The notes under the pieces: model-generated
The model's database searches: none
Told to the model about the DNA's origin: nothing
What the model saw: the letters and a program-made list of their open reading frames with translations, nothing else
Position numbers and translations under genes: made by a program
NCBI GenBank assembly: GCA_958009085.1
Contig: OY253670.1
Span: 434,001 to 498,000, forward strand
DNA length: 64,000 bases
Source: Protoeuglena noctilucae
Lineage: Eukaryota
Direction of reading: 5' to 3'
In this document: positions 12,663 through 56,026 of the stretch, one piece after another
Layout of the letters: every line of letters starts with the position of its first letter
How positions within the stretch are numbered: position 1 is the first letter of the stretch

Positions 12663-12730
<68 letters not shown>

Positions 12731-15700
12731 TCCTCACCACCACCGTCACCCTCACCCTCGCCACCCACCACCCGCAGGCATCGAGAAGCACGCGACCATC
12801 GCGCTGATCGTGGACCACCAGGGACAAGTCCAGGACGTGCGCCAGCACTGTGCCTGTGCTGCACCGGGGTTCAGCTTCACGCGCGAGGGCCTGCAGGGAG
12901 TGCCAGTAAACAAGGTCATCGGCATCAAGGGACCGCTCGAGGCGTTCATGACTGCGTGGGCCGAGGCCACGGCGGACCCTCCCTTTGAGTCGACACCGCA
13001 GCTGGTCACCGTCCGCACGCCCGACGGCACCGCCCGCCTCGCCAACGCTGTTTTCGGCGCCCGCCGCGACAGCCTGGGTAACGACGGCGATCGCGTGCTG
13101 TGCCTGACACTCTCCCGCCTGGACCTGCTCAACGTGGTGCTGGAGATGGCAGACGATGGTACCCTGCGCGCCATCCACGGCCCCGTGCACAAGCATGTCG
13201 GCCGACGCGCCGAGGTGCTGCTCTGCCAGCCCCTCTCGGCCATCGTCCCCGGATTGGGGGGCCGCATCCACCTTGCAGACGACCTCTTGGTTCCCCCCGG
13301 CCACCGCCGCGCGCCCAGCAACAAGCGCAAGTCGGTGGTGGGACCCGAACACTTCCAAGAGCAGTATGCGGGTTCACTGGGCGTGCGCCTCACTTTCCAA
13401 GCCGCGCGGATGCAGGGGACCAAGGACGAAGTGCTCGCGCTGCTGGAGGCCACGGGACCCCACCCCGGCCCCGCCAGGCCCCCGGAAGCGAGGGCGTTCG
13501 TCGCTGGGGAGGACCCTACCGAGATCGACGACGCGCTGCCTGGGGCACAACGGGCCGGGGAAGGGCTGGTGATTGATGCGGGGGCGGGTGAGGGTGCGCG
13601 TGTGGCGGAGGGGGCGGCAGGCGCGGTGACGGGGGGGATGGGAGGGGTGGCGAAGGGTGCGGAGAGCGAGGGAGAGACGGGGGCAGGTGCGGGAGAGGTA
13701 GAGGAGGGCAAGGTGGATGGGATGTCGAAGGCTGCAGAGGGTGCTGTGGATGGCGGGTCTCCTGATGATGGTGCGAAGGGCAATGTTGTGGGCGGCAAGC
13801 ACGGTGATGGGGACGGGAACGGGGATGACGAGTCGGACAGCGACGACGAGGGCAGGGTGCCTCCTCGCGGGTCTGCGTACGAGCGCGTGCGCGAGTGGGT
13901 GGAGGCGGGGGGCTCGCTGGACCGTGGGAGCGTGGCCATGTCGGTGGGGCTCAGCGCGACCGCGTCCCTGACCCGCCCCGGGCTGCTGCAGCAGCTCTCC
14001 GGCGCGGCGAACGGCGACGCAGGCGTCGAGCCGCTGACCGTCGACGCCATCGCTCGGCTCCAGGACTCGCTGCACCTCATGAAAGCCAAGCCCTCGGTGT
14101 CGGGCGACATCAGCCGTGAGTCGGCCCGCGCGCTCACCGCTGCAGCGTGGTCGTGGCTCCGCATACACGTGAATATGATATAAATTAGGTTTAACGTGCT
14201 ATCGGCTTCGATTCATGCGCGTACGCCTCGCTTCGTGCGTATCTAGATGACACGTGCCCCTCGATCCCCCTGCTTTACCGCGACAATGGAGCACTGCATC
14301 CCCTTCGCCGTCTTTTCAGGTTCCACGGCCCCCGCGGAGCCGAGCCCGACCAAGCCGGGGCCCGAGGCGGTCGCCGCAGCATCGCCCAAAGCACGCGGGC
14401 CCCTGGCGGACATCAAACGCGAGGCTGCCAAGCAACAGAGGAACTCCTCGACGTCCTCGCGGCTGGGCAGCATGTTCGTCGAGGAGTCGCGCGCGCCCGC
14501 GGGCACGAATGGCGGGGACAGCGGCGACGATGGCGACGGTGCCGATGATGACGGCGACGGCGGTGATAATGAGGATGGCAACGACATGGATGGCGAGATT
14601 GGTGGCGAGCAGCGCCGCGTGAGCATCGACAGCGGCGCGGGGAAGGCGAAAGGGCCGATGAGCCCCCGTGCGCGGCCGGGGCAGGTGGGGGAGGGGCGCG
14701 GCGGTGGCGGTGGTGCTGGCAAAGGCGATGACGATGAGGTGGATGAGGAGAGGGAGGGCAGCGTGGCGGGCAGCGCCGTGAGCGACTCTGTGGTCTCTGA
14801 GACGGGCGGCCGTGGGGGCGGGGCGGCGATGGTGGCCGAGGACGACGTGCCGGGGCTGGACCTCCTGGAGCACGAAACGGCGCAGGTGAGGGAACGTGAT
14901 GTGATGAGTCACCATTGCTCAGAGGTGGTCTGTGCACTTGCAGCGCAAGCCAAGGCTAGACACAGAGAGGTCCACTGTTTGCTTTCATTTACAACTCGCA
15001 TCCTCGCAACCTTCCGCAGGTGCGCTCCCGCAAGTTCAAGCGCATCGAGGCGCTTCTCACGTCGCGCACCGTGATGCGCCCCGTCCACGCCACGCGATAC
15101 GTGACGATGGCCGTGTGCCTAGTCATCTTCGCGGTGCAGTGCATTGCGTTCGGACTCACCCTCTCCTACGTCCGCAAACACACCCAGCTCAGCAACTACG
15201 TCTCGCTCGCTGCGACTGGGATGAAGGCGAGACGAGAGGGCGTTTGGGGGATGTCAACGCGACTGCCAATTTGCTAGCATCTCGCTTCTCATCCCACGAT
15301 CACCTCGCTCACCTCTATCTCACCGTCCCCACCTCTTGCACAGCTCATCGACACTCCTTACCTCGTCTTACCATGTCGCTCTTCGTGACTCGTTACCCAC
15401 TCACACTCTTGCACCCATTATTGCAGGGCATTATCGACATCAAACGGCCGCTTCTTACCTCGTCTATCTTCAACACTCCCCTCCCACGCACACTCTTGCA
15501 CTCCCTCTGCAGGACATCATTGACACCAAACAGTTGCGTCATAGCTACCTCGTCTCTCTTCAAGACTCCGTTCCCACTCACACCCTTGCACCCATGTTCG
15601 CAGGGCATCATCGACATCAAGCGCTACGCCCGTCTCCTCCAGGGCCTGTCCGTGGGCACGCCCATCCCAGGGGGTTCGCTTGAAACCAATCAGGCCAAGA

Positions 15701-18700
15701 TGTCCGCATTGACGGCGTCCTTCTTAGATGCGCACAACCAGCTCTACCACACGGCCACGTTCTTCACCCACGCACCGTGGAAGAGCACGTTCCGGGTGAG
15801 CAGGTTCGCGCGGCGACAGCACGATCTGCGGTGCCGGTGCTGTTGTGGCCGCACCCTCGCAGCTCGGCCGCCGATTGGCAGTGGGCTTCGGAGAGCAATT
15901 GTATTGCCACAGTTGGATCGCTTGGTTGGGGCTGGAGCACCGATAACGTGCTGCGATGCGTCGGTCGCAAGCCATCACGCCTAGTTGCTACCGCTCATTG
16001 CTCGCAGGACCTGTGGCTGGCGAACGACATGCAAGTGACCACCATGACGGCCAGCAGCCTGGCGACAGGGGCGCAGCTGCAGACGACGAACACCAATCTG
16101 TGGGAGTGCGGCAACACGTACGCGTCGAACGGACTCACCCTGGCCAAGATGACCGAAGCAGACATCAGCCAGGGGGACATCGCGCCCCTTGCCAGCTTCC
16201 AGTACGTCAAAGATAACGGGCTGGTTATCCTGGCGGGCAGGCAAGGGGGCTCTCAGTGACAGCACAGCGACACGAGCGCCGCTGCCCTATTGCCCCGCCG
16301 CCTAGCTGCCCTCTCGCCCTTCCCACACACCGCCCTCCCCTTGCTCTGCCCACGCAAACCTTCAACCCTCAACCACCCCCGCACCAACTCCCACAGCGCC
16401 CACACACCCCAACCGTGCCCCTCCCTCCCTACCCCTTTCTCTCAGATACGAGACCCTACTCAGTGCCCTAGTCAACGCGACGCGCGACAACCTGCACACT
16501 CTTGGAGTCGTCGCTCTCGTGTTTTTGGCCGTCAATCTCGGCGTCGTGGTGCCTGCTGCGATCCTGGCCATTCACGGGGGAATGGCAGCGGCCCTGCGCG
16601 TGCGTGCGGGGATGATGGCAGTGCTTCTGGCGGTGCCTCGGGCGTTGGTGCACGAAATGGCGCGGCGGCCCGTGAATTTGCAAGGGTTGGAGGAATTAGC
16701 GGAGGATGGCGACGAGGAGGACGCGGCTGAGGCGAACAAGGCTGCCGTGGCGGGTGCTGCTGGGGTGTCAGTGAAAACACTGCGGCTCCTTCTGTCGCAA
16801 AAGGTCGACTTTGAGAGGGTCAAGGGTGAGTGGGGGTTTGTTACGAGTAGTACTAGTTATGTACTATTGTTTTATACTATATAACAGTATAACAGTACAA
16901 CAGTATCTTGTATACTAGTGAAGGGTAGAGCGGCAGCAACGTCCCTACTCATTCACCTCAGCACAAAGCATCGCTCTTCTCAGCGCAAAGCACGTTTGCG
17001 CACTGCCACCCGCACCCTCTTCTGCCGCCCACTGGCTGCCCCCTTTTTCCCACCCGCAGTGGCCCGCGATTTGGTGCTTTCCCGCCGCGACAAGCAGCGT
17101 TCGCAGCGGGTGGTGGAGGCGCAGGTGGTGGGTCCGTTCGTGGCGTGGGGTGCGGTGGCGGGCGTTATATACGGTGTCACCTGGGCTTTGCAGTCCAGCA
17201 CCGCTGCGGTGTTCGAGCCATCCCGTGCGGGGTACTTCATGATGACTTATACTGCCAAGTGCCTGTGTAGTGCTACGGATTTGGTTGTTGACACCGTCAA
17301 TCGCCTGAATGGGTCGCCGTGGGCCACGGCCTCGGGGTCGGTCAAGTGAGGGGGTGATATGGTGATGTTGTGATATGGGCTGTGTGACTGTGGACGAGTG
17401 AGGGTATGATGATGTGATGTTGTGATATGGGCTGTGTGATTGTGGACGAGTGAGGTTGACACGGTGATGTGGGAGATGGCCTGTACGATGATACTACTCC
17501 TCAACTAGTCTGTTCACCTTAGAGCCAGATTGAGCCAAATCGAGAGATTCGAACTCTCGACCTCTGGCTCTTACCGCGTTCATTCGCAGGGACCGCCTCC
17601 GCGAGAACCAGCTGGTGGTGCAGAGTTCCGTGGATGCGCTCATCTGGGGCAACAGCACGTTCTTCAATGGGGTGATACCCGGGGGAACGGCGGTGTACGA
17701 CGCCCACGTGCGAGCTGTCTACTTCGACCACCAGTGCTTCAGCGTGAGTGGTTGGCTGGAGATGACCGTGGTGATTGATACTGCCATAATGGTGGCAATC
17801 AATGCGAGTGTAGCAGGGCATGTTGTACAACTATATCGTGATATCTGGGTTCTGGGAATTTACAAGCTCTCGCTGTGAATCCGCAGTTGGTGTCGTGCCC
17901 GCCCCCCACCGACCCCGACTGGCCGTCGACGGGGCGCGGGTATTACGCCCTGATGAGCCGGTTCAGCGATGAGGCCACGGCGCTGCCGGACGACAGAGAC
18001 GTCGACCTCACCGTCACCAACGCCAGGTAAGGGGTTGTGGTGGGTGTGACTGGGTGAATGAGTCAGTGTAACTGACGCAAGGTGCGGGGGTGGGTGTGAT
18101 TGGAACATTGGGGGTGTGGTGGGTGTGGCTAAGATGTGGACCTCACCGTCACCAATGCCAGGTGAGGGGTGGGGTGGGTGATTGTGGTCAGTGTAACTGA
18201 TGCCAGGTGAGGGGGTGGGGGATGGGATTGGTATGCGTGGGGTGCATGGCAGGGGTCACAGGTAGGTCGCACCTTGACTGGTGCCATGCATTGCAATCGT
18301 ACGAGGGTGCCATAGATCACGTCTTGCTTGCGATGCCTCTCAAGCAAGACGCCTCTCCACCGATGCCCGTCCCTCTCCCTCCCCTGCGTTCGCAGGTACA
18401 CCTTCCTGCAGACCCAGGGCGACGATTCGATTCTCCAGGCGCAGCTGAGGATCAAGGTGGCCATCGAATCGCACAACAACCTTGCCGTCACCCTCGTCGC
18501 CATGCACGCCGCGCTGCTCGCCGCCACCGCCGTCGCCGGTGTATGGTGAGCGCACCGGCAATGCGTGGAACGATTTGTAAACGATATCTAATAGAATAAG
18601 ATTGGCTGCGTGTCTTTGTGGGGTGTTCTCACCTGATGCTAGCGCCCCACAAGTGGCTGCCGATGTATCACCTCACACTCCATATCGCTCGCAGTCACAC

Positions 18701-29319: not shown

Positions 29320-32300
29320 CTTAGGGTGTTCCCGGAAGTTCTCCGGGTCCCGGGGGTAGGGCCACCGGAAGGGCTGCGGGTGGGGATACCACCCCCTCAT
29401 CCTGGCATCTCCCTCCGCCAGAGTGCCGGGCAGCGGGTCCGGCGCCGCCCTCCGTTCGTGCTCCGCCATCATGGATCGTGCTGTGCCGTACGGGTCCGAC
29501 TGCGACATCACGTTCGCCATCAGAGCACGTTGCGGGTTCCAGGTCTCCCACAAATCGCGGGCCGCGCGGCCGCCTGGGGGGGTTAAGAGGAGATGAGTGA
29601 GCGGGGTGGTGAGTGTGGTTGGGGTGGGGAGTGTTGGGTGGTGAGTGAGTGAGTGAGTGAGTGAGTGAGTGAGTGAGTGAGTGAGTGAGTGAGTGAGTGA
29701 GTGAGTGAGTGAGTGAGTGAGTGAGTGAGTGAGTGAGTGAGTGAGTGAGTGAGTGAGTGAGTGAGTGAGTGATTGAGTGAGTGAGTGAGTGAGTGAGTGA
29801 GTGAGTGGGGTGGTGAGTGTGGGTGACGCATAAGTTGCTAATCGGGGTGTTGATATGGTCACATCGCCCCTACCCGTGCCCAATGCATCCCATCCACACA
29901 AACCCCACCCCCCTGACCACACCCCCTCCCCCTTCAACCCCACTCACGTGTCGCCTCCGCCTCCCGCATTCTCTCCCAATTAACCTCCTCCCACCGCACC
30001 CCACGCCTACGCTCCTCCCTCGCAGCCCTCTCAGCTTCATAAGCAAGGTTGCATGGCGGTATGTACGGATTGCGCAGCTCAGGGAACGACACCGTTCCCC
30101 CAGAGTCCTCCCCGCCCACCCCCGCGTCCCCGGTAACTCGCCGCCCTTCCCCGGACTCCTCCACAGCTCTCGAAACGCGGCGGGAGCTGGGCCGCATGGA
30201 CCGACGCTGTTTACTGACGCCTGCGTCAGTCCACCCCACCACGTCCTCCCTCGTCAGCTCCCCGCCAAACTTCTTATACACCATATCGATCATCTCTCCG
30301 GTAGGGAATAGCCTCAGGTCCTCGGCCTGTCGGGTAAAGTCGGCGGTTGTCAGCGCGTGCAATCGTCGCATTCCCTCGCGACACTTGTCGCGCACGCGAC
30401 CGGTGGAGAAGGTGCCTGCCTCTGCCACGATGCGGGACAGGGGGGCGCGGAGCTTGACCTGGGGTTAGGGGGGGTTAGGGGGGGTTAGGGGGGGTTGGGG
30501 TGGGGGGGGGTGGGGGTGGGGGTATGACTTATGATTGCATGGTGGGATCGCGCGTGTGCATGCGTGGGCATGAGAGGGCGCGTGGCAGCATGCACGCACG
30601 CACCACTCGCATCGCACATCATCAATGCTAGTATCACTCCCATCGCACATTGCTACGATCACACAGTATAATTCCCATCCATAACCCCACGCGTCATCCC
30701 CTCGCCTGCTCGACGTGAATCCCGAACGACGCGAATATCCGGTCCGAAAAAGAGAGCAGCTTCGACCACAGCGCCTTCCGCGGCCTCTTGCAAGCGTCCG
30801 ATGCGTCCTCTGCAATCGCGCACTCGCACAGATACGACATCTGCTGCATCCACCCTTCCGCTAAACCCTCGACGAAAATGATGCGGGTGGAGCCGTCGAT
30901 GACCTGCGTAGCTCATCAAACGGGATTAGTAACATAGTCGAATTGGTCAACATCTCAGTGGCTGGATCAGTCACGGGGTGTGTGGGGTGCAGGTTGTGAC
31001 CAGGTCCAGCTCTACCGTGTTACTTACTTTTGTTATTACATATCTCAATCATAAATTATATGTATATAATAACAAACCACCCCTCGTATATCACCTGGCA
31101 CGCGGTGAGCAGGTCCAGCTCCGGATTGGCCGCCTCGTCCTCGGTGATCTTTCGCGTGGCCATGACTTGCATGGTGTGCTGCGATACCTGAGTCAGGTCG
31201 TATCGGTGCTGCAGTCTTTCTAATTGGGTCATCGATTGCAGCTCCTCGTATTCCTCCATCAGCCGAGAGCGCTCGTCCTGGTGGGGGGGGGGGGGGGGGG
31301 ATTTCTAATATTTAATATCTGCTATCTAAACTCTTATGTTTCTATATTAGAGATGGGGATGAGAGGGGTGGATGGGGTGAGGAGCGTGATGTGGATGGAG
31401 GGGAGTGGGGATGAGACATGGGGATGATAGATATGGATGGGAGGTGGTACAATCGAGAGAAGTGATGCTATCGCATCGACTGTTATTTTGCTATCTCTGT
31501 ATTAGCCCCTCACCATGACTGCCCCATGTACCGTTCCATGTACCCCAATACTATCGCATCAATTGTATCTATGTTATGAAAAATATAATATTTTCCATAT
31601 CTCATATCTCATATCCTCACCATGACTGCCAGGTATCGTTCCATGGCCTCGCTGGGCCGGCTCGCTTGCTTGGACTGACTGCGGCGGTGGGCGGCTGTGA
31701 GAAGGAGGGGGGGATGGGCAATGAGCTTGCAATAACAGTTTGTAACAGCTGTAGTTGTCACGAGAGTGCATCGACATCCCGTATGTTATCATGATGGCGC
31801 ATCAACATCACATTTGCTTTTATCAATCATCATAAAACTCACTGGCCGTCCTTGCCCCCAGTGCCCTCCCCTCTGATGCCTTGCCACCCTCCTCCTCTCC
31901 CCCCTGCTTGTCGGGCTCCGGCTCTGCTTGGGAATGATAGAATTGATATGTGTGGATAATCCACTTATATCCAAGATGTTGAATGGGTGGCAGTGAGGGT
32001 GGCAGCGGGGGTGGCAGTGAGGGTGCGGGTGCCGATACCGGCAAGCCATCTCTGTCATTAATATTAATGAGTATATGAGTTGTTATAGCACACATAGACA
32101 GTCGCATTATATCACAGCCACTCACCCGGCGGCAGCTCCGGCAGCTCGGGTGGCTCTGGGTCGTGGATGGGGTTCTCGACCAATCCCATAGTGATGGCAT
32201 TGAGCACTTTGATGGTGCGCTCCACTCTGTGAAAGGGGGTGAGTGATTGCATGTGAGAGTGAGAGTGAGGGGTCCTTTCTGGTCCATTCGTTACCGGTTG

Positions 32301-44422: not shown

Positions 44423-47400
44423 TTACATGTACTGCTTGAGCCACGCAGCGACGTTGATGTACGATTCGAACTCGGTCTGGGGGATGGCCAGGTCGTGCTT
44501 GTCCTCAAACAGCAACACGCGCACCTGCGTGGATGTACACAGCAAAGGCGAATAACATACCAAGGGAAAGCATCTCGCAAGATTACATAGCAAAAGGCAA
44601 CTGAGATGCGCACGGTGCTGCAGCGACGGACTGCGGCGGCAACATCTGTGTGTTCGTTCTCTCTGATAGTGTTCCCCTACACCACCTGCCACCACATCCC
44701 CATCCCCTATCCCACCCTCTCTCATCTACTCACCCCAACTCCGCTCCCCTGCACCACATCCCATCCCATCCCATCCCCCACCCCACCCTATTCTCACTTT
44801 GACTGAGTCACCGAGTCACCCCCTCCCTCACCTCCACCGGGTCCTCCCTGTCCCTCAGCGCCGTCACGTACTGCATGGCGTCCTTGCAAGGCACCCGCAT
44901 GTCCTGGCTGCCCAGCAGCATCAGCACGGGGGCACGCACGTCGGCCACGTGGGCGATGGGGGACGCGGCATGCATGCGCTCCAAGTCAGACACTGCGGGG
45001 GGTGGGGATGTTGTTGCATCAGCAGCGTCAAATGCACTGCACCATATACAAAGTGATACAAAAAGTATCGTTGCATAGGCAGCGTCAGGTGCACTGTACC
45101 AGATACACAGTGATACATTACACCTTTATCAAGCACGCCATCGTCACATCCCCACGCACCCCCCCTCTCCCTCCCCTCACCGGTCGGGTCGACGCGGAAC
45201 CTCCTCCGCCCCTCCTCGGTGCCAAACACCTCCACGAAGCACCAATCGGGGATGTCCGATATCCCGCTCATCAGCGCCACGTTGCAGACCGGGTTGCGCA
45301 TGACGCCGCATTTGAACCGGTTGCCGTGGCGGCCCAGCAGGTGGCCGGCTAAGAAGCCCCCGTGGGAGCCGCCGCTGACGGCCACGCGGGAGAGGTCGAC
45401 TGAGAGGGGGGGGGGGTTGGTTGGTGTGTGGGGTTTGGGGGTGGGGGGGGGGGGGGGGGGGGGGGGAGTTGCGAGTGAGGGGCAGGTGGGGAAGGTGAGC
45501 TTGCCAGAGAGCGGCCAGGGATGGTAGGAGCAGCAAAGCAGAATGGATGCATTGAAACAGAACGTGCTATCAATCATCTGCCTCACCGATGCCCATGCTT
45601 GCCGCCAGGTCGAGGGCGCTTAAGCAGACGCGCACATCCATCTCCCCGATGTGGCCTGCGAGGAAACAGGAAGAGGGGATAGGATAGCACAGCTGCTTGC
45701 GATCTCTTAGTTCGTTGCTCATTAAACATCACCCGGCAGCGCCTGCACCACCACCACCCCCACCCCCTCTCCCTAACCACCACCCACCCTATCACCCCAC
45801 CCCCACCCCTCCCCACTCACCCGGCAGCGCCTGCACGACCGCCTCCCCGAACCCCGTGCTCCCCCGGAAGTTCACCAAAACCACCGCGTACCCCGCAGCG
45901 GCCAGGAAGGCATAATAGGTGACGAACGACGTCACAAAGGCCGCGTGGGGCCCGCCGTGGGGCACGAGCACCGTTGGGGCGGGGCCGTGGATGGAGCGAC
46001 GGCGGATGATGATGGCTTCGATGGCAGATGGGGAGGGAGATGAGGGGTCGTCGGATGGGAGGGCTGGGGTGCTGAGGAGGACTCCGCCAGATGCATCGGC
46101 GTCGGCGACGGTGGCGTCTTCAAAGGGCACTTGGATGACTGGGGGGGGTGGGGAGAAGGGGGTGGGAGTGGTGGGGGATTGGTGATAATCAAAGCCACTT
46201 GGATCCACTTGGATGACTGGAGGAAGAGGGGGTGTGGTGTGTGCGGGAAGAGGAGTGGGTGTGGGTGACATGCGATGGGTGGTGGGTGGGGAGGGAAGGG
46301 GGTAGGATGAGACGCGATGAAGTGAGCCCACCCACACCCACCTGCACCCACCTCGACCACCCAAACTCAATCACACCCACCCCCACTACCCACTCACCCT
46401 GATACTCCATGCCGGCCAATGCGCTCTCCACTTAACACCACCCCAGTCACTCAGTCACTCACCCCGATACTCCATGTCGGCCAGCGCGCCCTCGACCGCC
46501 GGATGGAAGGGCTCCGGCATGGCCACCTGGATGCCCTCCCAGATCCACGTCCCATTGCACTGCCGGGCGACCATCAGCTTCTCCGGTGTTGCAGGGGTGC
46601 TCACCGCAGCCACCAACACATCGTGCCGCACATCCAGCAATCGCCACGACCCGCAGTTGGGGGGCGGGGGCGTGATGCGAGTGATGGTGCCGGTCATGGT
46701 GTCGACGGTCACGATGGCCTGGTCGGAGCGCCATTGGGAGTGCAGCACGATGGTGTGGCCGTCCGCGAGGAAGGGGGCCGCGGGCTGCAAAGGGGGGGAT
46801 GAGGGGGAAGGGGCTGGGTGTGGTGTTGGTGGGGTGTCGGTCTGCAAATGCATAGAGCGTATAAATGCTACTTTCAGATCCACACCACTGTCACTCATTA
46901 GCGTGGTCACCCATCCACCCCATCACCGCTACTCAGATCCACATCTACCACGTTTTACCGATCCATATCTACCGCTATTTACCACGATCGCTTATCTCGT
47001 CAACACACCCACTCACCAGCGTGGTCGTGTACAGCCCCGGGAAGTCCTCCCCCGTGTTTGGTTTGTCCACCACCCCAATCATGGTTCGAATCTCAGTGGG
47101 GACGGCAGGGCCCACGCGGGGGTCGGTGGGGTCGCTCCAGGAAATCCGACGCAGGGCGGCTGGGGGGGAGAGAGGGGTGGTGGTGGGGGTGGGTGAAGGT
47201 GGTGGTGGGGGTGGCAATGGGGGTGGCAGTGGGGGTGGCAGTGAGGGTGGCAGTGAGGGTGGCAGTGAGGGTGGCAGTGGGGGTGGCAGTGAGGGATAGG
47301 GTGGGTGAAGGTGATAGTAAGGTGGCTGAGCGTTGAGCCTGTTGAGGGACGGGACTGTATAAGACCATGCGTCTCGTTGCGTATGCCCATCTGCCCCCTC

Positions 47401-50076
47401 ACCACCCCCACCACCAGCACTCCCTCTCACCTGTCCCGTTGTGCGTCCCCGTCTGCCCTATCACCCCACCCCCACATCTCACCTGCCCCACCCTATCCAT
47501 GCCAAATCTGACCCATACTACCCCAGCCGCCACTCCCTCACCCGTCCCGTCGTGCGTCCCCGTCTGCGCCGCCGCCTCATGGGACAGGAAGATCACCACC
47601 GCCCCGTCGGGCGTGAAGCGCGGGGAGTGGGCGCTGAGCAGCCCCTGAGTCAGGCACACACACGCAGGGGGCTCCGTAGTAACTGCATTGGCAGTAGTAG
47701 CACCAGCACCACCAGTACCACCAGAACCACCAGAACCACTAGTACCACCAGTAGCATTAGAAGTGTTAGTGGTGGTAGTGTTTGTAGGTGCACCAGCTCC
47801 CGTCTTGGCAACCTCGGTTTCGGTTTTACCACCCCCCCGCGTGTTTGCATGGGGGTGCTTGGAGGGCATCGCGAGGGCGTAGAGGCGCGAGGGGCGGTTC
47901 ATGCAGTAAATAATGCCCAGCTGCTTGACCGTGAAGTAGTTGAGGGGCTTGCCCGGCCAGCCCACGAACTGCGGGGGGGTGGGGGGGTGAGTGGGGTGGC
48001 GGGTGTTGTGAGGGAGTGGGAGGGTGGCAGGGGTGAGGGGGAGTGGGATACAGCGGCGACTAAAGCAGGATGGGATTGCAGCCCTAATAACTAATGGGAT
48101 CAACATGACGGTCACCCACTCACCACGATGGACTCCCCGTCCGGGCTCCATAACGGCTGCCCGCACGACAGGTCAGGGTCGATGCCTGGGGGGGGAGAGA
48201 GAGTTGCTTGTCACCACAACATCGCCCCATCCTATCACAACATCAATACCACATCACCCTTCGATGCCATCGCAACTCACCCCCACCATGCGTTCCCCAT
48301 TCATCTTCCATTCTTCTATCACTCACCCGGCACCGCCTCCACTTCCCACGAAGCCAGGTCCATCACGAACAGACAGAGAGACAGAAAGACAGAAAGAGAG
48401 AGAGAGACACAGTGAATAGCCACTCACCCGGTACCGCCTCCACCTCCCACGATGCCAAATCCATCACGAACAGTCGGGGGATGCCGCGCCGGTGGTATGC
48501 CTCTCCCCAGTCTTGGTCCCACTTCCCCTTCCCGCGCCACGTCTTGGGCTGAAAGGGAGGTAAGCGAGCGACGGTGGTATTGGTAACACCATGCTCGTCA
48601 ACCAATCTCATCTCCCCACCCGTGTTGTAACCCAACTCTGCCACCGTCATCCCAGCCACGCTCGCAAACACCCCCTGTCACACCCATGCCACTCAAACAC
48701 CCCTGTCACCCACTCCCCACCAACCACCAACCCCTCACCTTGGCCCTTCCCTTGTCACCCAAGTCACGCTTGCAAACACCCAACCCACCCAGTCACATAA
48801 ATCACTTGCAAACACCCCCCGTCACACCCACGTCACTAATACGCACTACACACCCACCCCTGTCACCCACCATTCACCCCATCAACCACCCCATCAACCC
48901 CTCACCTTGGCCCTTCCCTTAGCCTCCCCCCCCACGCTCCTCGACCCGGCCGTGAACGCTCCCCACTCGGGCGTCTTCTCGGCAGCAGGCGCCTCAGCCA
49001 CGTAACAAACGCGGGACTCATCGGGGGACCAAGCGGCTCCATCGGCAAACCACCCGTCGTTGAACACACCCCGGTGCACCGACCTCGGTACCTCCACTTC
49101 CTTCAACAGCCGCCCGCCGCCCCAGATCTCCAAAATCGTCGGCTCCTTGTCCTTTCCCGGCCCGTCCGACTGCCTCACGACCAGCATGCGGCAGCCGGAG
49201 GGGCTGGGGGAGACCAACACCACGTCGGGACGCAGCTGCCATGGAAGGGAGGGGATCATCGTGGGCGCGGCGCCGACGATCACCGATACCGGGATGTGAA
49301 CCGTGGATACGAACCGGCGCATGGCGTTGTTCGCCAGGTCGCGCTGGTTGAAGAGGACCTGGGGGCCAAGGGGGCACGCGGAGATGAGAGAGGTGGGGGC
49401 ACGCGGGTGTGTTGGCGGGCGTGGGAGTCGTGTAGCCAAGCGAGCGCGTCATATGCATGGATGGTGACCAAGCATGACGTAGAAAAATAGGAACAGGTTT
49501 TAATAATGGGTTTCGCAGTGAGATAGGAGCCCGCGGGGTGCTCCCTCGCCTGGATGTCGCATCCGCCGATGGAAGACGGCATGCACCAGGCCTTGGAGAT
49601 GGTGGGGATCTCGCAGAAGCCCTCGAGCATGACGGTCTCGGCCTCGACGCCGCTCGGCTCCTCTCGGGCGCCGTTCCCTGCGCGCGGGGCGGCGCAGGCG
49701 CGGGTTGGTTCGCGGCGCGCTTGCTCGCGACAGGTGCCCGCGATGCGGGCCCGGGAGGCCCCGGCGCGGCCTCCCACGATCGGCATGGCGTCATAGAGCG
49801 ACCCTGTCGCGGCATCGCAGACATCCGCGGTCGCAGGGGCCGCGGCGGGGGCGCAAGAAGGCTCGCACCGTTCGCGGGACGCTCGGTCGACGCCGCGTTC
49901 ATCGTAACTCCCAATGGCGTGGCGGATGCAGCGATCTTGGCCGTTTGAGGGACGCCGCGGGCGCGAGGAGCGGCTGGGACGGCTCCCGGGGCCCTGCAGA
50001 GCGCGGCGATGTGCGCGGCTCGGCGGAGCGCGCAGGGTCCAAGCAAGCGGGGACTGAGGCCCACGCAGCGAATCAT
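44423..50076 (-). CDS. APEH: Acylamino-acid-releasing enzyme (acylpeptide hydrolase, family S9C)
   Basis: PHGGPH, VNFRGSTGFGE, nucleophile GGSHGG (~45360), LGSQDMRVP (Asp) and FEDKHDL (His). N-terminal propeller motifs HRGVFNDGWFADGAAWS and GIIYCMNRPSRLY. Confidence 0.93.
47210..47294. repeat. (GGTGGCAGTGRG)n 12-mer minisatellite in an APEH intron
   Basis: About 7 tandem copies. A shorter related array occurs at ~31985-32025. Confidence 0.9.
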
Positions 50077-50589: not shown

Positions 50590-53500
50590 CTACGTCCTCT
50601 GGTGCTGCTGGAGCGTGATCTTGTCGCCGAGGGCGAGGGCGATGCCCTGCGTCTTGGACCGGATGCGGATGTGGCCCTCGAGCGTCCCCGCCCCCGTCTT
50701 CTCCACGCTCATGTTGACCAGCGCGTCCTCGCCGAAGACGCTCCGCGCGTAGAGGTTGGCGGCGAGGAAGCGGGACTCGCCGTCGAGCGCGTTAGGCGGC
50801 GTCAGGCACCGCATATTGGTGGCCCGGCAGATGTGCTCCAGGAAGTCCCTCGGCTCCGTGATGCGCGTGTTGACCGATACCTTGTTCTCCCACTCGAATT
50901 CGGCCCACATGGACCGGAACTGCGCGTCCGGCACGGTCGCCGGGTGGATGTAGTCCATGATGTCGACGTGCACGTCGTTCATCACCACCACGCTCCGCTC
51001 CCCGTAGCCCTTCCCCTCGTATACCACGTTCCCGAACACCACGCCCGTCTCGGTGGACGAAACCTTGATGTTGGCGCGCACCGTGCGGGCCTCCCCGGGG
51101 CTGTGGGGGATGGGCACGGACGGGGGACGAAGGTGAGCCTCAGTCACTACGCTGTTGTTCTTGAGTGGCTAGCTCTACGCCATCTCAGCCAGGTCACTGC
51201 TGTGCAACATCTCAACCATATCACTGCGCCATCCCAGCCACGTCACAACGCCACCTCAACTACCCTGACATGCCACTCCAGCCACATGACTGCGTTGTGC
51301 CATGCGCACATCCCATCCACCCCGGGTCTCGCCTGAGCGTGAGGGGCGCGGGCCTCTCCACGACCTTCAGGTCCCCCATGGTCGCCAGCTCCAGCACCAG
51401 GTTGCGCATGTGCTCCTGCGAGGGAGATGATAGGAAAGCGTGAGAAGAAGTAAGCAGTGCTCTCTGTGTCAAAGTCTTGATCGTGTCGTCAACACCATTA
51501 CGCGACCGAGCCGTCTGAAGCGAGCATGCAACCGTAGCCTTCTCGGGCACCCTCACATTGACAGGTATCTCTCCCACCCTGCAATGCACCCCCCGGGCCC
51601 CTCATCGCAATCGCCCCCCCCTTATTCACACGAACCCCCCCTCGCCCCTCGCCTGTGTGCGGTTGATGAGCGTGACGTCCATGACGATGTCGTACTGGTG
51701 GACAGTCACGAGTGCCTCGGCATACACCGGGTCGCTCAGCCCCGTCAGCTGCAGGGTGCGCTGGCGAGACGAGGCGTCGCGGTCTTCCTGGGGGGGGAAG
51801 GGAGAGGGTGGAGATGAGGTTTGGGGAGCAGGGACACAAGGTTGGGTGCATGAGCAAGGAAGAGTGGTACTGGGGGAGTTGCAATGGTTGACAGAGTGCG
51901 CCCACAATACACGCGCCTCCCCTGTACCCCACAACGCATGTTCTGTAACCCATCCACACAACTCGCCTGCGTGAACCCCGTGGCCTTCACCAGGTCGTCG
52001 TCGTCTGCCGCCCCCTGTGCCGCCGACTGGGAACGCAGCTGGGGGATGTCCACGGGGGCGTCCGGCTGCACCTGCGAGCGACATGTGGCGATGCGGCGGG
52101 TGAGGAGCAAGACGAGACCACTAAGTCGTTGCTGTACTTGTGACCCAGTCGCAGTGCTGTGCTGGCACAGCCACAGTAGCGCTTCTGCCACAGCACATTG
52201 ACCCCTGTAACCTCCCCCGCCCATACCAGCCCCGCCCATGCGCTCATCGCAGGCAACCCCGCCCCCTCTGCTCGCCTGGGCCACTGCCTCCCCCCTGTAA
52301 CCTCCCCCCATGTTATCCCATGCCATCCCACATCATCGCCCATGCGCCCATCGCACCCTCCTCCCCCACCACTCGCCTGGGCCACTGCCTCCCCCCCCTC
52401 AGCTGCTGCTGCTGCGTTGCGTTCGGCTATCATCCGTTCGAATGCGCGCCGGGACTCGTCCAGGAACAGCTGCTGAAGCACCGCGTCCTTGCTCGTCTGC
52501 AACGATGTCAAACGAGAAGATGCGATGGGATCGATGCGATCGTATTATGCATGGCCAGCATAATACGATGATAGCTGTCACTGTGACTGTCATGCATACC
52601 ACCACTCACCAGTGCCTGCATGGCCAGCATGATGCGGTCATAGCTGTCCGTGTCCACCGGTGCCGTGCCTGGCGCCTCCCCCAGCCGCAGCACCGCCGTG
52701 AAGAACAGCATGTACTGCGTGCAGCAAATCACGGAATAATTATTTCTAATGCCTTGCAGTTTCGCTCTCAAGTTTCGCGAACCCACCACCGTGCAAGCAT
52801 GTGTGCCATGCAGCCGCATGCTTACACCTCCCCCCCACTTACCTGCGCGGCCGCCAGGTTAAACGCCTCCGGTGCGATGGCCCCCATAGACCGAAGCTTG
52901 AACAGCAGCTTGGCCACAGTAGTAGCGGCAACCGCTGCCAGGAAGTAGTCGCCCCCCAGCACGAGCGCCCGCACGTTGGGAGCCTGCGGGCCCACCCCGG
53001 CTGTCTTGGCGGCCATCGCTTGCTCGGTCACCGCTGTCTGTGTGGCGTAGCTCCCGTCTGGCAGCACCACGGTGCGGGTGCTGCCGCGGGGGGCGTCGGC
53101 GGCCGGGGCGGCGGGGTCGGAGGGGCGGTCGGCGTCGGGGGAGATCTGTGGGGTGGGGTGGGGGGCGGGGGTGGTGGAAGTGAGGGTGGGGTGAGCATCA
53201 ACATCTCATGTATAAAGTCATTCCCACCCAGACAATTCCCTAGTACCGTTCGAACGATCACACTACCCGCGTCTGTCGCCATGTCCGATTGCGTACCGCC
53301 CTAACCCCCCATACCCTACCGCCCTCCACCCCACCCCCTCACCAGGGGCAGGTCCCCCAGGGACGTCCTCAGCGTCTCGAGCGCCCCCCGGACCTCCGCG
53401 GGCGTCGCGGCGTACTCAGACATGACCCAGAGACTGGAGGCGCACACCCGGCCGGACCGGGTCTGCCGGAAGGTATCCACCAGCCGAGACATGACGGTCG

Positions 53501-56026
53501 CACGGAGGTCGGGGGACGCCTCTGCGATCTCCCGGACGAAGTGGACGACTTCCAGAGCGCTGGCGGCGCTGGAATCGCCCAGGAAGTCCATGAGGAGGTG
53601 GACGACGGACGGGGCGACGGACGGGAAGCGGACCGCGCATCGGTGGACGCCCGCGATGAGGAGCTGGCGGTACTGGGGGCCGCCCTCCACGTCCTTGGAC
53701 TGCGGGGGGTGGGGGGGGGGGGGGGGGGGGGGGAATGGGAGATGTTATGGAATCTGAGATGAACTCTAGGGTTTGGACAGGCAGGGTGGTGAGGCGGTGC
53801 TCGCGATGCAAAAGGAGGGGCGTGGGCATGGGCATGTCTTTGAACTGGCACCTCACGATCTCCTTCTTCAGCACCTGCACCCCTCTTGTTGACAATCACT
53901 CACCTGTGACCTCACGATCTCCTTCTTGAGCACTTGCACGACCTCGTCGATGGTCCCCTTGGACACCAGGCCCAGCGCCAGGTCCAACACCTTTTTGCGC
54001 ACCTCCATGGACTGCGGGGAGGGGGCAGAGGGACAGGGGGTGTTTGTGAGAGAGACAGGCGTTTGTCGCAATCAGCAGTGTGGCCAGCGAGGCGGTGGTG
54101 GGACAATACGCACATGCGAGGTTGCCGACACAATCAAACCCCGTCATCGACTCTTCCCCCCCCACCAGCCCGTGTGTCTCGCCTGGGTGTTGAGTGCCCT
54201 GAGCAGGTCCATCAAAAAGTCCTTGACGGTGGCCTGGTGCTTGTCGCGGAGGCTGGCGATGCGGTCCAGCACGATGAGCTTCACGTTGTTGTCGGACTGG
54301 GACACCTGGGGGAGGGGAGAGTGAAGCGGGAGGTGAAACGGAGGTAAACAAAGGCTAGAAGTAGTGTTGTCGGACTTGGACGGGGGACTTGGACCGGGGG
54401 GGGGTGGGGTGGGGGAGAGGGAGATGGAGAGGGAGGTGAACGGTGGTGAGCGAAGGCAAGCGAACGTGAGCGGAGGTGAATCAGGGTTTAGCAGAGGTGA
54501 TCAGAGGCAGAGGATAGCAGAGACCAACAGAGAGTGTACAGGGTGCGCATGCGCCGGCCGAAGCTGTCCGTCTCGCCGCATGTCTTCATCAGCATGCACG
54601 TACAGGTCGCAACCAAACGTGTAACAGTGACTCACCAGCAGCTGGACGTAGCAGTTGGCGACGGCGCGGATGGCGGTGGGCGCCTGGGAGAGCTGCGTCA
54701 GGACGTACGCCGCCTCAAAGACCACCGAGGGAGACGACGACTGGACGAACGCAAGCACGATCTGCGGGCCATGAAAGTACAGGTGATGCAGCGGTGACGA
54801 GTAAGGAAATGAGTAGAAGTAGCAGGTGGCAGTCAGGTCGCGGTGAGAGCGAGGGGGAGGAAGCTTAGACCCGAACCCAGGCGAATGCACCGCCCACCCG
54901 CCCCGCCGCTCGCCTGCACGAACGTCCCCCTCTGGGCCGGCTGAGTGCGGCAGGCCTTGCGGACCAGCTGCAGCCCCGCCATCTGCATCGTGTCCTGCCA
55001 CTCCACGAGCCGGGCCTTGTTCTCCACCAAAAACTGCAGGGCGCGCGTCTCAGCGTGATTGATTAGGAAGTGGAACGCGTTGCGGCGGGCGCTGGGGTCC
55101 TCCTCCTGCCGCAGAAACTTGTCGATGACCTCGGCCGCGTCCGGAATCAGCACGTCGCCCTTCGGGAGCTTCGCGACGGAGTCGACGGCGAGCACTGCGT
55201 TGCGCCGGACGTACGCCTTGCGATGGTCCAAGCACGCGAGGATCGAGGGCACCAGGGGCTCCAGGATGTCCTCCTCGTGGATGCGGCAGAGGAAGCGGAG
55301 CGTCACGCCGCGCAGGAACTCGTTCGGGTGCTGCAGGTTGTTGCGCAGGTTTTGGCAAATGAGGATCATCTCGGGGAGCAGCTTGCCCGACGCGTCCGTC
55401 TTCTTGATCGTCTCCTGCGCGAAGCGGGGGGCACGAGGCGGAGCGAGATGAGCGACTTCGACGGGGCAGCGAGGCGGACGGTCGCTGCGGGCCGGCGCGG
55501 GCGGAAACGGCGCGTCGCACAGCGCGTCATGCAGTGCGGGCCCCGCGGCGTCCCCCGTCCCAGATCCTCCCCCTCCGCGCACGCAGCGAGCACAACAAAG
55601 TCGTACCTGTTCGCGTCTGCGTCTAGGGGACAGGCTAGCGGCGTTCTGCGCCCGGCGCGGCCAGCCAAAGGGTCAAGGCCGGCAGGGTCGTCCGCGTGGC
55701 GCGCCGAGGCGGGTCCGGGGTCGAGAGCCCGATGCGATGGAAAGAACGCATGAAAATCAATCGCGAACGCCCAGGGGCCTCACCAAGTAGAGCAGCAGCA
55801 GCTTTTGGACGAGGTGGTTGTCGGTGGGGAGGACGTAGCGCACGATGGTGAAGAAGAGCTGGTCGAGCTGCTCTCCGTTGAGTATCAGCGCGATGACCTG
55901 CTTCATCGCCTCCGCCTTCTCGCCCGGATCGGCCGACTCGAGCATCTTCTTCAGGTCCACCTGGTTGGGGTTCCGATCGGAGTGCACCAGCATGGTGCAG
56001 GTCTGCTCCGTGAGGCTGCTCGTCAT
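50590..56026 (-). CDS. COPB1: Coatomer subunit beta (beta-COP)
   Basis: CTMLVH...[124 protein letters not shown]. Confidence 0.98.

Follow-up and report, generated by a model that had tools for sequence, protein, structure and literature searches.

A young copy of an exon end, with a continuation resembling the next exon, inside an old COPB1 intron of Protoeuglena noctilucae

How does an intron come to hold a stretch that reads like the spliced junction of its own two exons? The question is raised by a stretch of 64,000 nucleotides (nt) from Protoeuglena noctilucae (assembly GCA_958009085.1, contig OY253670.1, positions 434,001 to 498,000 of the forward strand), here called the window, in which COPB1, the gene for coatomer beta, lies on the minus strand from about 55993 to 50605. 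Window coordinates are used throughout, and features are on the minus strand unless stated otherwise. Positions 24-71 of one COPB1 intron (53880-53833) align without gaps to the joined ends of the flanking exons, with 41 of 48 nt identical. A reading of the locus from its letters (the sequence-only reading) had proposed that this patch was templated by complementary DNA (cDNA), messenger RNA (mRNA) or an intron-less allele, or that it is a relic of the intron's creation. Its coordinates and letters, the exon-exon junction and the identity of the gene were correct, as judged by alignment, splice model, Pfam and named homologues. The copy exists and is younger than the intron, and copies of the same kind, made from unspliced template, are frequent nearby. 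A local DNA-templated repair patch, with a continuation that resembles the next exon by chance, is the origin we favour, at about even strength.

COPB1 was recognised by its domains and by collinearity with named beta-COP proteins. Pfam Adaptin_N, Coatamer_beta_C and Coatomer_b_Cpla matched on three of its exons, and residues 1-937 of a full-length homologue (P0005) aligned to the window in exon-sized pieces (tblastn). The closest named relatives were green-algal 'Coatomer subunit beta' proteins with 60-67% identity. The G+C content of the window is about 64%. To place the splice sites, the possible GT/GC..AG pairs were listed and each joined translation was compared with the closest relative (P0121); the top model scored 92 and the runner-up 75. 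The resulting junction is gapless in nearly all of the 114 homologues listed. The upstream exon (53904..54011, 108 nt), placed by the homology-guided splice model and an exon-sum fit to an RNA contig, ends at 53904 and reads ..GTGAGGTCACAG|GTGAGT. The intron (53700..53903, 204 nt) is in phase 0 and runs from GTGAGT to CAG, with GCAG at its very end. The downstream exon (53343..53699, 357 nt), placed by homology and matched by Pfam Adaptin_N, starts at 53699 and reads ..CCGCAG|TCCAAGGACGTG.

RNA support for removal of the intron is indirect. Position 2806 of a 4371-nt RNA contig (X1, record 3) corresponds to window position 54914, and the remaining 1565 nt are the exact sum of ten modelled exons from 54761 to 51333 (126+123+108+357+303+105+120+105+135+83). 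The sum equals the RNA remainder with the 204-nt intron removed, which fits splicing-out of the intron. Five downstream RNA joints listed at the depth of the same record agree with the splice model.

The patch was divided into two parts. Its first 36 nt (A', 53845..53880) match the last 36 nt of the upstream exon (A, 53904..53939) at 32 positions, and the pair constitutes a direct repeat (D2) with 59-nt spacing. The first 23 nt of the intron (GTGAGTGATTGTCAACAAGAGGG, x, 53881..53903) lie between the 5' splice site and A'. The following 12 nt (B', TTCAAAGACATG, 53833..53844), whose origin is disputed below, match the first 12 nt of the downstream exon (B, 53688..53699) at nine positions, and the unspliced continuation of the exon end, GTGAGTGATTGT, at only four. 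The last 4 nt of B' lie within a (CATGCC)3 microsatellite that abuts and overlaps it (53818..53836; 6-nt unit, GGGCAT on the plus strand, 3.2 copies, Tandem Repeats Finder). There is no similarity beyond B', and local alignment scored none to the left of A'. A leftward extension of the copy (TCAACAAGAGGG against TCGACGAGGTC) was dropped because the local alignment did not keep it. The three mismatches of B' are all transitions, and their use as support for homology was also dropped, as transitions make up only one of the four differences between A and A'. In the 64-kb window no further source was found for x or for the remaining parts of the intron, apart from poly-C. The sequence-only reading had excluded simple tandem duplication of the present DNA, and this holds: such an event would place GTGAGT, not TTCAAAGACATG, behind the copy.

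The patch is not an assembly artefact, since A' is also present in two other assemblies, where it is read as ..LKKEIVRCQ.. (P0179, on a 7171-nt contig, and P0189, on a 1255-nt contig). The proteins called there read through the patch and then through poly-C of differing length into the exon. The poly-C tract before the 3' splice site (53704..53733, 30 G on the plus strand, Tandem Repeats Finder) varies in length among three assemblies of the same species (P0179, P0180 and P0189), which differ only there. In the gene calls of two of the three, its length brings the exon-like patch and the following exon into one reading frame.

Chance was estimated separately for the two parts. The score of the intron against its own upstream exon was 26, compared with a maximum of 14 in 684 intron-versus-other-exon controls, and the 36-nt part is certainly a duplication beyond chance. 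Across the junction the score was 34, compared with a maximum of 16 in 380 intron-versus-other-junction controls; A' supplies 28 of the 34. For B', the probability of at least 9/12 matches was 6e-4 over all 12-mers of the window, and that of an extension score of at least 6 was 0.0014 (4371 intron positions), 0.0030 (87,440) and 0.0023 (127,920) under three nulls. Identity is 29/31 up to the last undisputed base (GTGAGGT) and 12/17 from there on (Fisher p=0.08). The 12/17 match has an empirical P of 1.9e-4 (24/127,966), for a span that was chosen post hoc. A window-wide scan for donor-like sites with a copy of their upstream sequence within 400 nt yielded 43 candidates, some of them redundant or in repeat arrays, and 156 copy-by-acceptor pairs. 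At the null rate of 0.0011 per pair, 0.17 pairs with an extension of this size are expected among the 156. The expectation falls to about 0.02-0.05 if only the 14 of the 43 copies that lack a following 5' splice site (G[TC][GA]) are counted, with the true acceptor. The excess of the 12-nt continuation over chance is borderline, and it is the sole support for a spliced template. A search of introns against their own spliced junctions, proposed in the sequence-only reading, was run on 64 kb and 20 introns; the continuation at the target did beat all controls, but copies of exon ends turned out to be common (7/20).

The age of the intron was assessed in relatives. When metagenomes were scanned with the downstream exon, 177 relatives came up and 80 loci were kept; none of the 80 kept of 177 was from the window species itself. 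The intron is absent from all 80 kept loci, which are contiguous across the junction. They include two loci (L001 and L002) that are 76% identical in the downstream exon and have 70% G+C, and five intron-rich Botryococcus-like loci that are contiguous here and have 3-11 interruptions elsewhere in the gene. L001 (3-2369) carries an uninterrupted 788-codon piece of COPB1, over which the window gene has 12 introns; its open reading frames (ORFs) are ordered + - +.

A further relative does have the intron. P0181, a stand-alone 175-residue ORF on a Logan contig, is likewise 76% identical in the downstream exon. It reads MCHVPRCHAARAARTYPQ|TKDVEHGAQYRQ, and its homology begins exactly at the exon start of the window, behind an in-frame CAG, which places an intron at the same codon boundary (..Q|TKDVEHG). 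The homology ends exactly at the next 5' splice site of the window, and the next intron is therefore shared as well (GDLPL|VRG). P0004, which like P0181 lies on a Logan contig of 35,896 nt, continues through introns behind ..TFVQ and ..QLLVS, where the window has them too; if P0181 and P0004 come from the same organism, at least four intron positions are shared with the window. The sequence-only reading had asked whether related algae lack the intron: the 80 metagenome loci do, and P0181 does not. Distances among the window, P0181 and L001 are alike (90, 90 and 93 of 119 residues shared in the downstream exon; 135, 133 and 138 of 184 residues with two more segments added), and 46/73 fourfold sites differ between the window and L001. 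Because the intron position is shared with P0181, which is as distant as L001, its origin goes back at least to a split old enough for neutral sites to be saturated. A', which is still 32/36 identical to the exon, is far younger. Gene conversion that kept the 36 nt of A' similar to A would be an unlikely way around this. The lineage of L001 probably lost its introns or split off before they originated. Intronless L001/L002 and intron-sharing P0181/P0004, at equal distance, suggest that introns were lost or gained wholesale inside a single small clade.

Copies of exon ends were then compared over 20 verified introns at 44-56 kb. Eight of these came from RNA joints at 44.3-48.4 kb and belong to the gene or genes at 44.3-49.4 kb; 12 are in COPB1, six verified by RNA joints and six by homology and frame. 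Seven of the 20, the target included, contain a young copy of the end of their own upstream exon. The copies are 20-46 nt long, score 19-33.5 (control maximum 14, n=684) and end 59-111 nt into the intron. A copied 5' splice site (GTGAGTG, GCGAG or GTGA) stands right after the copy in five of the seven (45656-45820, 46139-46462, 47160-47541, 48186-48427 and 52072-52376), so that in these introns the exon-intron boundary itself was duplicated and the template was unspliced. The copied stretch passes the splice site by only 4-7 nt in four introns, and further similarity of the repeat units is visible by eye in 52072-52376 and 47160-47541. RNA joints use the upstream 5' splice site in copy-bearing introns. 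The second exon-only case besides the target is intron 52497-52609, where the continuation is unrelated (3/12 to the next exon).

In an unbiased scan along diagonals, the region 44.3-56 kb gave 15 repeat pairs of non-low-complexity sequence at distances of 30-250 nt. Six of these run from an exon end into the following intron, two are at a 3' boundary, four are intron-intron and three are without class. The 59-111-nt repeats, which are two-copy and only partly similar, were not reported by Tandem Repeats Finder. Intron 5' ends look like a hot spot of short-range duplication. Exon-end copies being frequent, the 36-nt part of the patch is of an ordinary kind of local duplication, and there were more chances for a coincidental continuation. 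Unverified copy candidates from the window-wide scan have donors near 17397, 18026, 27592, 28019 and 28377 on the plus strand, and near 15459, 15582, 18147, 32768, 34450, 34511, 35199, 48810, 48906 and 59427 on the minus strand.

Other features of these introns were recorded. Duplication also occurs at 3' boundaries: 15 nt of an intron end and 11 nt of an exon start (46128-46153) have a copy 78 nt upstream inside the same intron (46206-46231), and the start of the exon following intron 54306-54635 (54287-54303) has a 17-nt copy (16/17) inside that intron (54365-54381). All 20 introns are polar, their 5' halves being G-rich and C-poor (e.g. G 0.67, C 0.04) and their 3' halves C-rich and G-poor (up to C 0.69); pairing between the halves is conceivable, as are G-quadruplexes in the 5' halves. 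Long arrays of GTGA/GTGAGG units, that is, tandem copies of the local 5' splice-site consensus, are present at about 29656-29812 (plus strand) and at 12666-12738. Intron 47160-47541 contains a minisatellite (47174-47295) with about 10 copies of a 12-nt unit, GGGGTGGCAGTG. The word depth of a DNA run (X6) in the bin of this minisatellite is 3572, against about 50-100 elsewhere, which indicates that the unit is highly repeated in the genome.

Two further features concern COPB1. GC-AG introns usually make up about 1% of introns, and the share in COPB1 is far above this: GC donors were found in 6/13 introns (51101-51332, 51416-51652, 51788-51966, 52072-52376, 54012-54182 and 54762-54913), always as CAG|GCGAG and in three cases verified by RNA joints, compared with 0/8 in the neighbouring gene. 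The upstream and downstream exons of the target intron also open with near-identical 12-mers, TCCATGGAGGTG (54000-54011) and TCCAAGGACGTG (53688-53699), which agree at 10/12 positions. Both of these exon starts (repeat family D1) sit behind similar C-rich acceptor tracts.

A local DNA-templated patch is favoured because the target belongs to a class that comprises 7/20 introns, with unspliced templates in five neighbours. The copy in intron 52497-52609 indicates that exon-only patches occur without a junction signal. Identity already declines before the junction and B' ends in (CATGCC)3; both fit a homology that stopped short of the junction. Continuations this good are expected 0.02-0.17 times per window, which we count in favour of coincidence. 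The source of the copy, 59 nt upstream, is within the short range (less than about 100 nt) of templated insertions. On this evidence an old COPB1 intron would recently have gained a short repair patch, 23 nt behind its 5' splice site. A break or stalled fork in the 5' part of the intron may have been mended by short-range templated synthesis from the upstream flank, in which the last 36 nt of the exon were copied. The pathway would be microhomology-mediated end joining or slippage, possibly Pol-theta-like, and the ends may have been rejoined via short stretches of homology, with GAGG as a candidate at the left border of the patch and CAG or GGT at its right border, neither of them clean. TTCAAAGACATG would be original intron sequence that resembles the start of the next exon by coincidence.

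Several observations weigh against such a patch. Its left border needs TC to be replaced by G. The continuation (9/12, or 12/17) tops every control, with a per-site P of 2e-4 to 3e-3, and the target is the sole pair of the 156 with an extension of at least 6, the next best having 3. The homology of the copy stops 0-5 nt from the exon end without a trace of GTGAGT after it, whereas the five clear DNA-level cases all keep GTGAGT. A rough estimate of the likelihood ratio of a real continuation versus chance is about 80-150 (binomial, 29/31 and 12/17, background match rate 0.28); with an assumed prior for a spliced template of 0.2-2%, which is a guess, the posterior is about 15% to 75%.

The same observations bear on the strongest alternative, in which the whole 48-nt patch (A' and B') was copied from spliced COPB1 mRNA or cDNA while a break in the intron was repaired. 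Repair would have stopped short of intron deletion, left the exon-exon junction inside the intron and become fixed in the germ line. We consider this origin possible but doubtful. It accounts for 41/48 ungapped identities to the spliced junction, against 4/12 for the unspliced continuation, for a match that is unique among the 156 pairs of the window, and for a homology that ends near the exon end without the following GTGAGT, as a spliced template predicts. Since the copy is younger than the intron, a template contiguous across the junction must have been spliced. If the codons of L001 are ancestral, the intron copy has retained a CAG that became CAA in the exon, and TGC and TCA would each be a single change away from TCC. 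Repair of intron breaks templated by spliced mRNA is described for human cells in the cited portion of PMC12065846. However, the signature of that pathway is deletion of the whole intron, and the 204-nt intron is still present here. The claim also hangs on 12 nt, three of them mismatched and the last four within the microsatellite; the other five clear cases of the region had an unspliced template, and no second junction-crossing copy of the 20 verified junctions rose above noise in the 64-kb window (best, left 13 + right 6). If such templating did occur, readable scars of RNA repair would lie in the introns of this alga beside far commoner DNA-templated ones.

A junction copy could also be made from DNA alone, which we regard as improbable. 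A polymerase would have copied the exon end as far as ..CAG, switched to the 3' end of the intron (..GCAG|TCCAAGG) and copied 12 nt more. CAG terminates both the exon and the intron, GCCAG|TTCAAAGACATG matches CGCAG|TCCAAGGACGTG at 12/17 positions, and copies of 3' boundaries inside introns do exist here (46206-46231/46128-46153 and 54365-54381/54287-54303). This origin needs two template switches where its rivals need one, at the switch point the microhomology does not extend upstream beyond CAG, and the 12-nt match carries the same statistical weakness. Under either origin of a junction copy, the intron before the patch would read x joined to CCCATGCCC.., with TTCAAAGACATG missing along with A'.

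An origin of the copy at the birth of the intron, or from an intron-less allele or paralogue, is very improbable, and the relic proposed in the sequence-only reading appears effectively refuted. The absence of the intron from the 80 kept metagenome loci, L001/L002 and the five Botryococcus-like loci among them, would suit it. P0181, however, has an intron at the same boundary as well as the next one, and P0004 has two more if it is from the same organism. Neutral DNA of the age of the intron could not have stayed 32/36 identical when 46/73 fourfold sites differ, and a copy that is 89% identical is younger than an intron position shared with P0181. Nor do the ends of the intron copy the exons as the tandem-duplication model needs.

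Retention of the exon-like stretch for a splicing function, as a decoy for exon-binding factors or a piece of an alternative exon, is the least probable origin: the identical amino-acid reading of the patch in three assemblies is expected within one species anyway, read-through from the exon meets a stop after 11 codons, the patch has neither a preceding 3' splice site nor a following 5' splice site, the length of the RNA contig fits full removal of the intron, and a phmmer search with the read-through ORF of the patch against 1.84 billion representatives returned two matches, P0179 of the same species and an unrelated protein.

A real junction copy would provide evidence, natural and heritable, that DNA repair in a green alga can use spliced RNA as template with the intron retained. 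Wherever the introns of a genome are well annotated, scars of this type could be counted, and they bear on intron loss. If the continuation is due to chance, the finding is ordinary, yet young copies of the upstream exon end are still present in about one in three introns examined. Such copies, usually with a second 5' splice site, point to a high rate of short-range duplication at the 5' ends of introns, which lengthens introns and seeds pseudo splice sites.

The closest known layout is that of intron 7 of human F7. In the part of the report cited here, a 37-bp minisatellite is described whose first unit spans the exon 7-intron boundary and whose further units hold silent 5' pseudo-sites (PMC1557585). 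As there, the exon end is part of the duplicated unit, copies follow in the intron shortly after the functional 5' splice site, and splicing takes the most upstream of the sites; five neighbouring introns (45656-45820, 46139-46462, 47160-47541, 48186-48427 and 52072-52376) have exactly this layout. The target differs in that its copy is without a 5' pseudo-site and is followed by TTCAAAG, whereas a pseudo-site is present in 5/6 of the other copy-bearing introns. The copies here are also single, 59-111 nt apart and mostly without similarity over a whole unit, and they affect about one third of the introns examined, compared with one locus in the F7 account.

Double-strand-break repair templated by spliced mRNA leaves deletion of the whole intron as its scar, according to the cited portion of the report (PMC12065846). 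A break in an intron of a transcribed gene and synthesis across the exon-exon junction would be common to both. At the target the intron is kept, the junction lies inside it with 12 nt beyond, and the case is known from sequence alone.

Two models of intron gain were compared as presented in the sections cited of a review (PMC3443670). In gain by tandem genomic duplication of an exon segment with AGGT, local duplication also places exon sequence in an intron; that intron is new, starts with a copy of the downstream exon start and ends with a copy of the upstream exon end. This model was rejected for the target. By eye there is no copy between GTGAGTGATTGT and TCCAAGGACGTG or between poly-C..GCAG and ..GGTCACAG, the repeat spacing is 59 nt and the intron 204 nt, and the intron is shared with P0181 at about 24% protein divergence while the copy is 89% identical. 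In Daphnia, intron gain is ascribed to repair of staggered breaks, with short direct repeats flanking the new introns (PMC3443670). Error-prone break repair that leaves local direct repeats at introns is the likeness; the Daphnia repeats are of a few bases and flank a new intron, whereas here a 36-nt copy lies inside an old one.

Introners, families of introns derived from transposons in the cited part of PMC9860276, share with the present case an intron-rich marine alga with a close relative that lacks introns in the same gene. They were rejected here, as no blastn match between different introns was found among the 20 at E<=1e-3, and the target intron has no second copy in the 64-kb window, poly-C aside. 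Templated insertions at breaks are taken from nearby flanks, by polymerase theta, or from reverse-transcribed RNA, and the patch resembles them in being a short insert that copies sequence within about 100 nt of the join.

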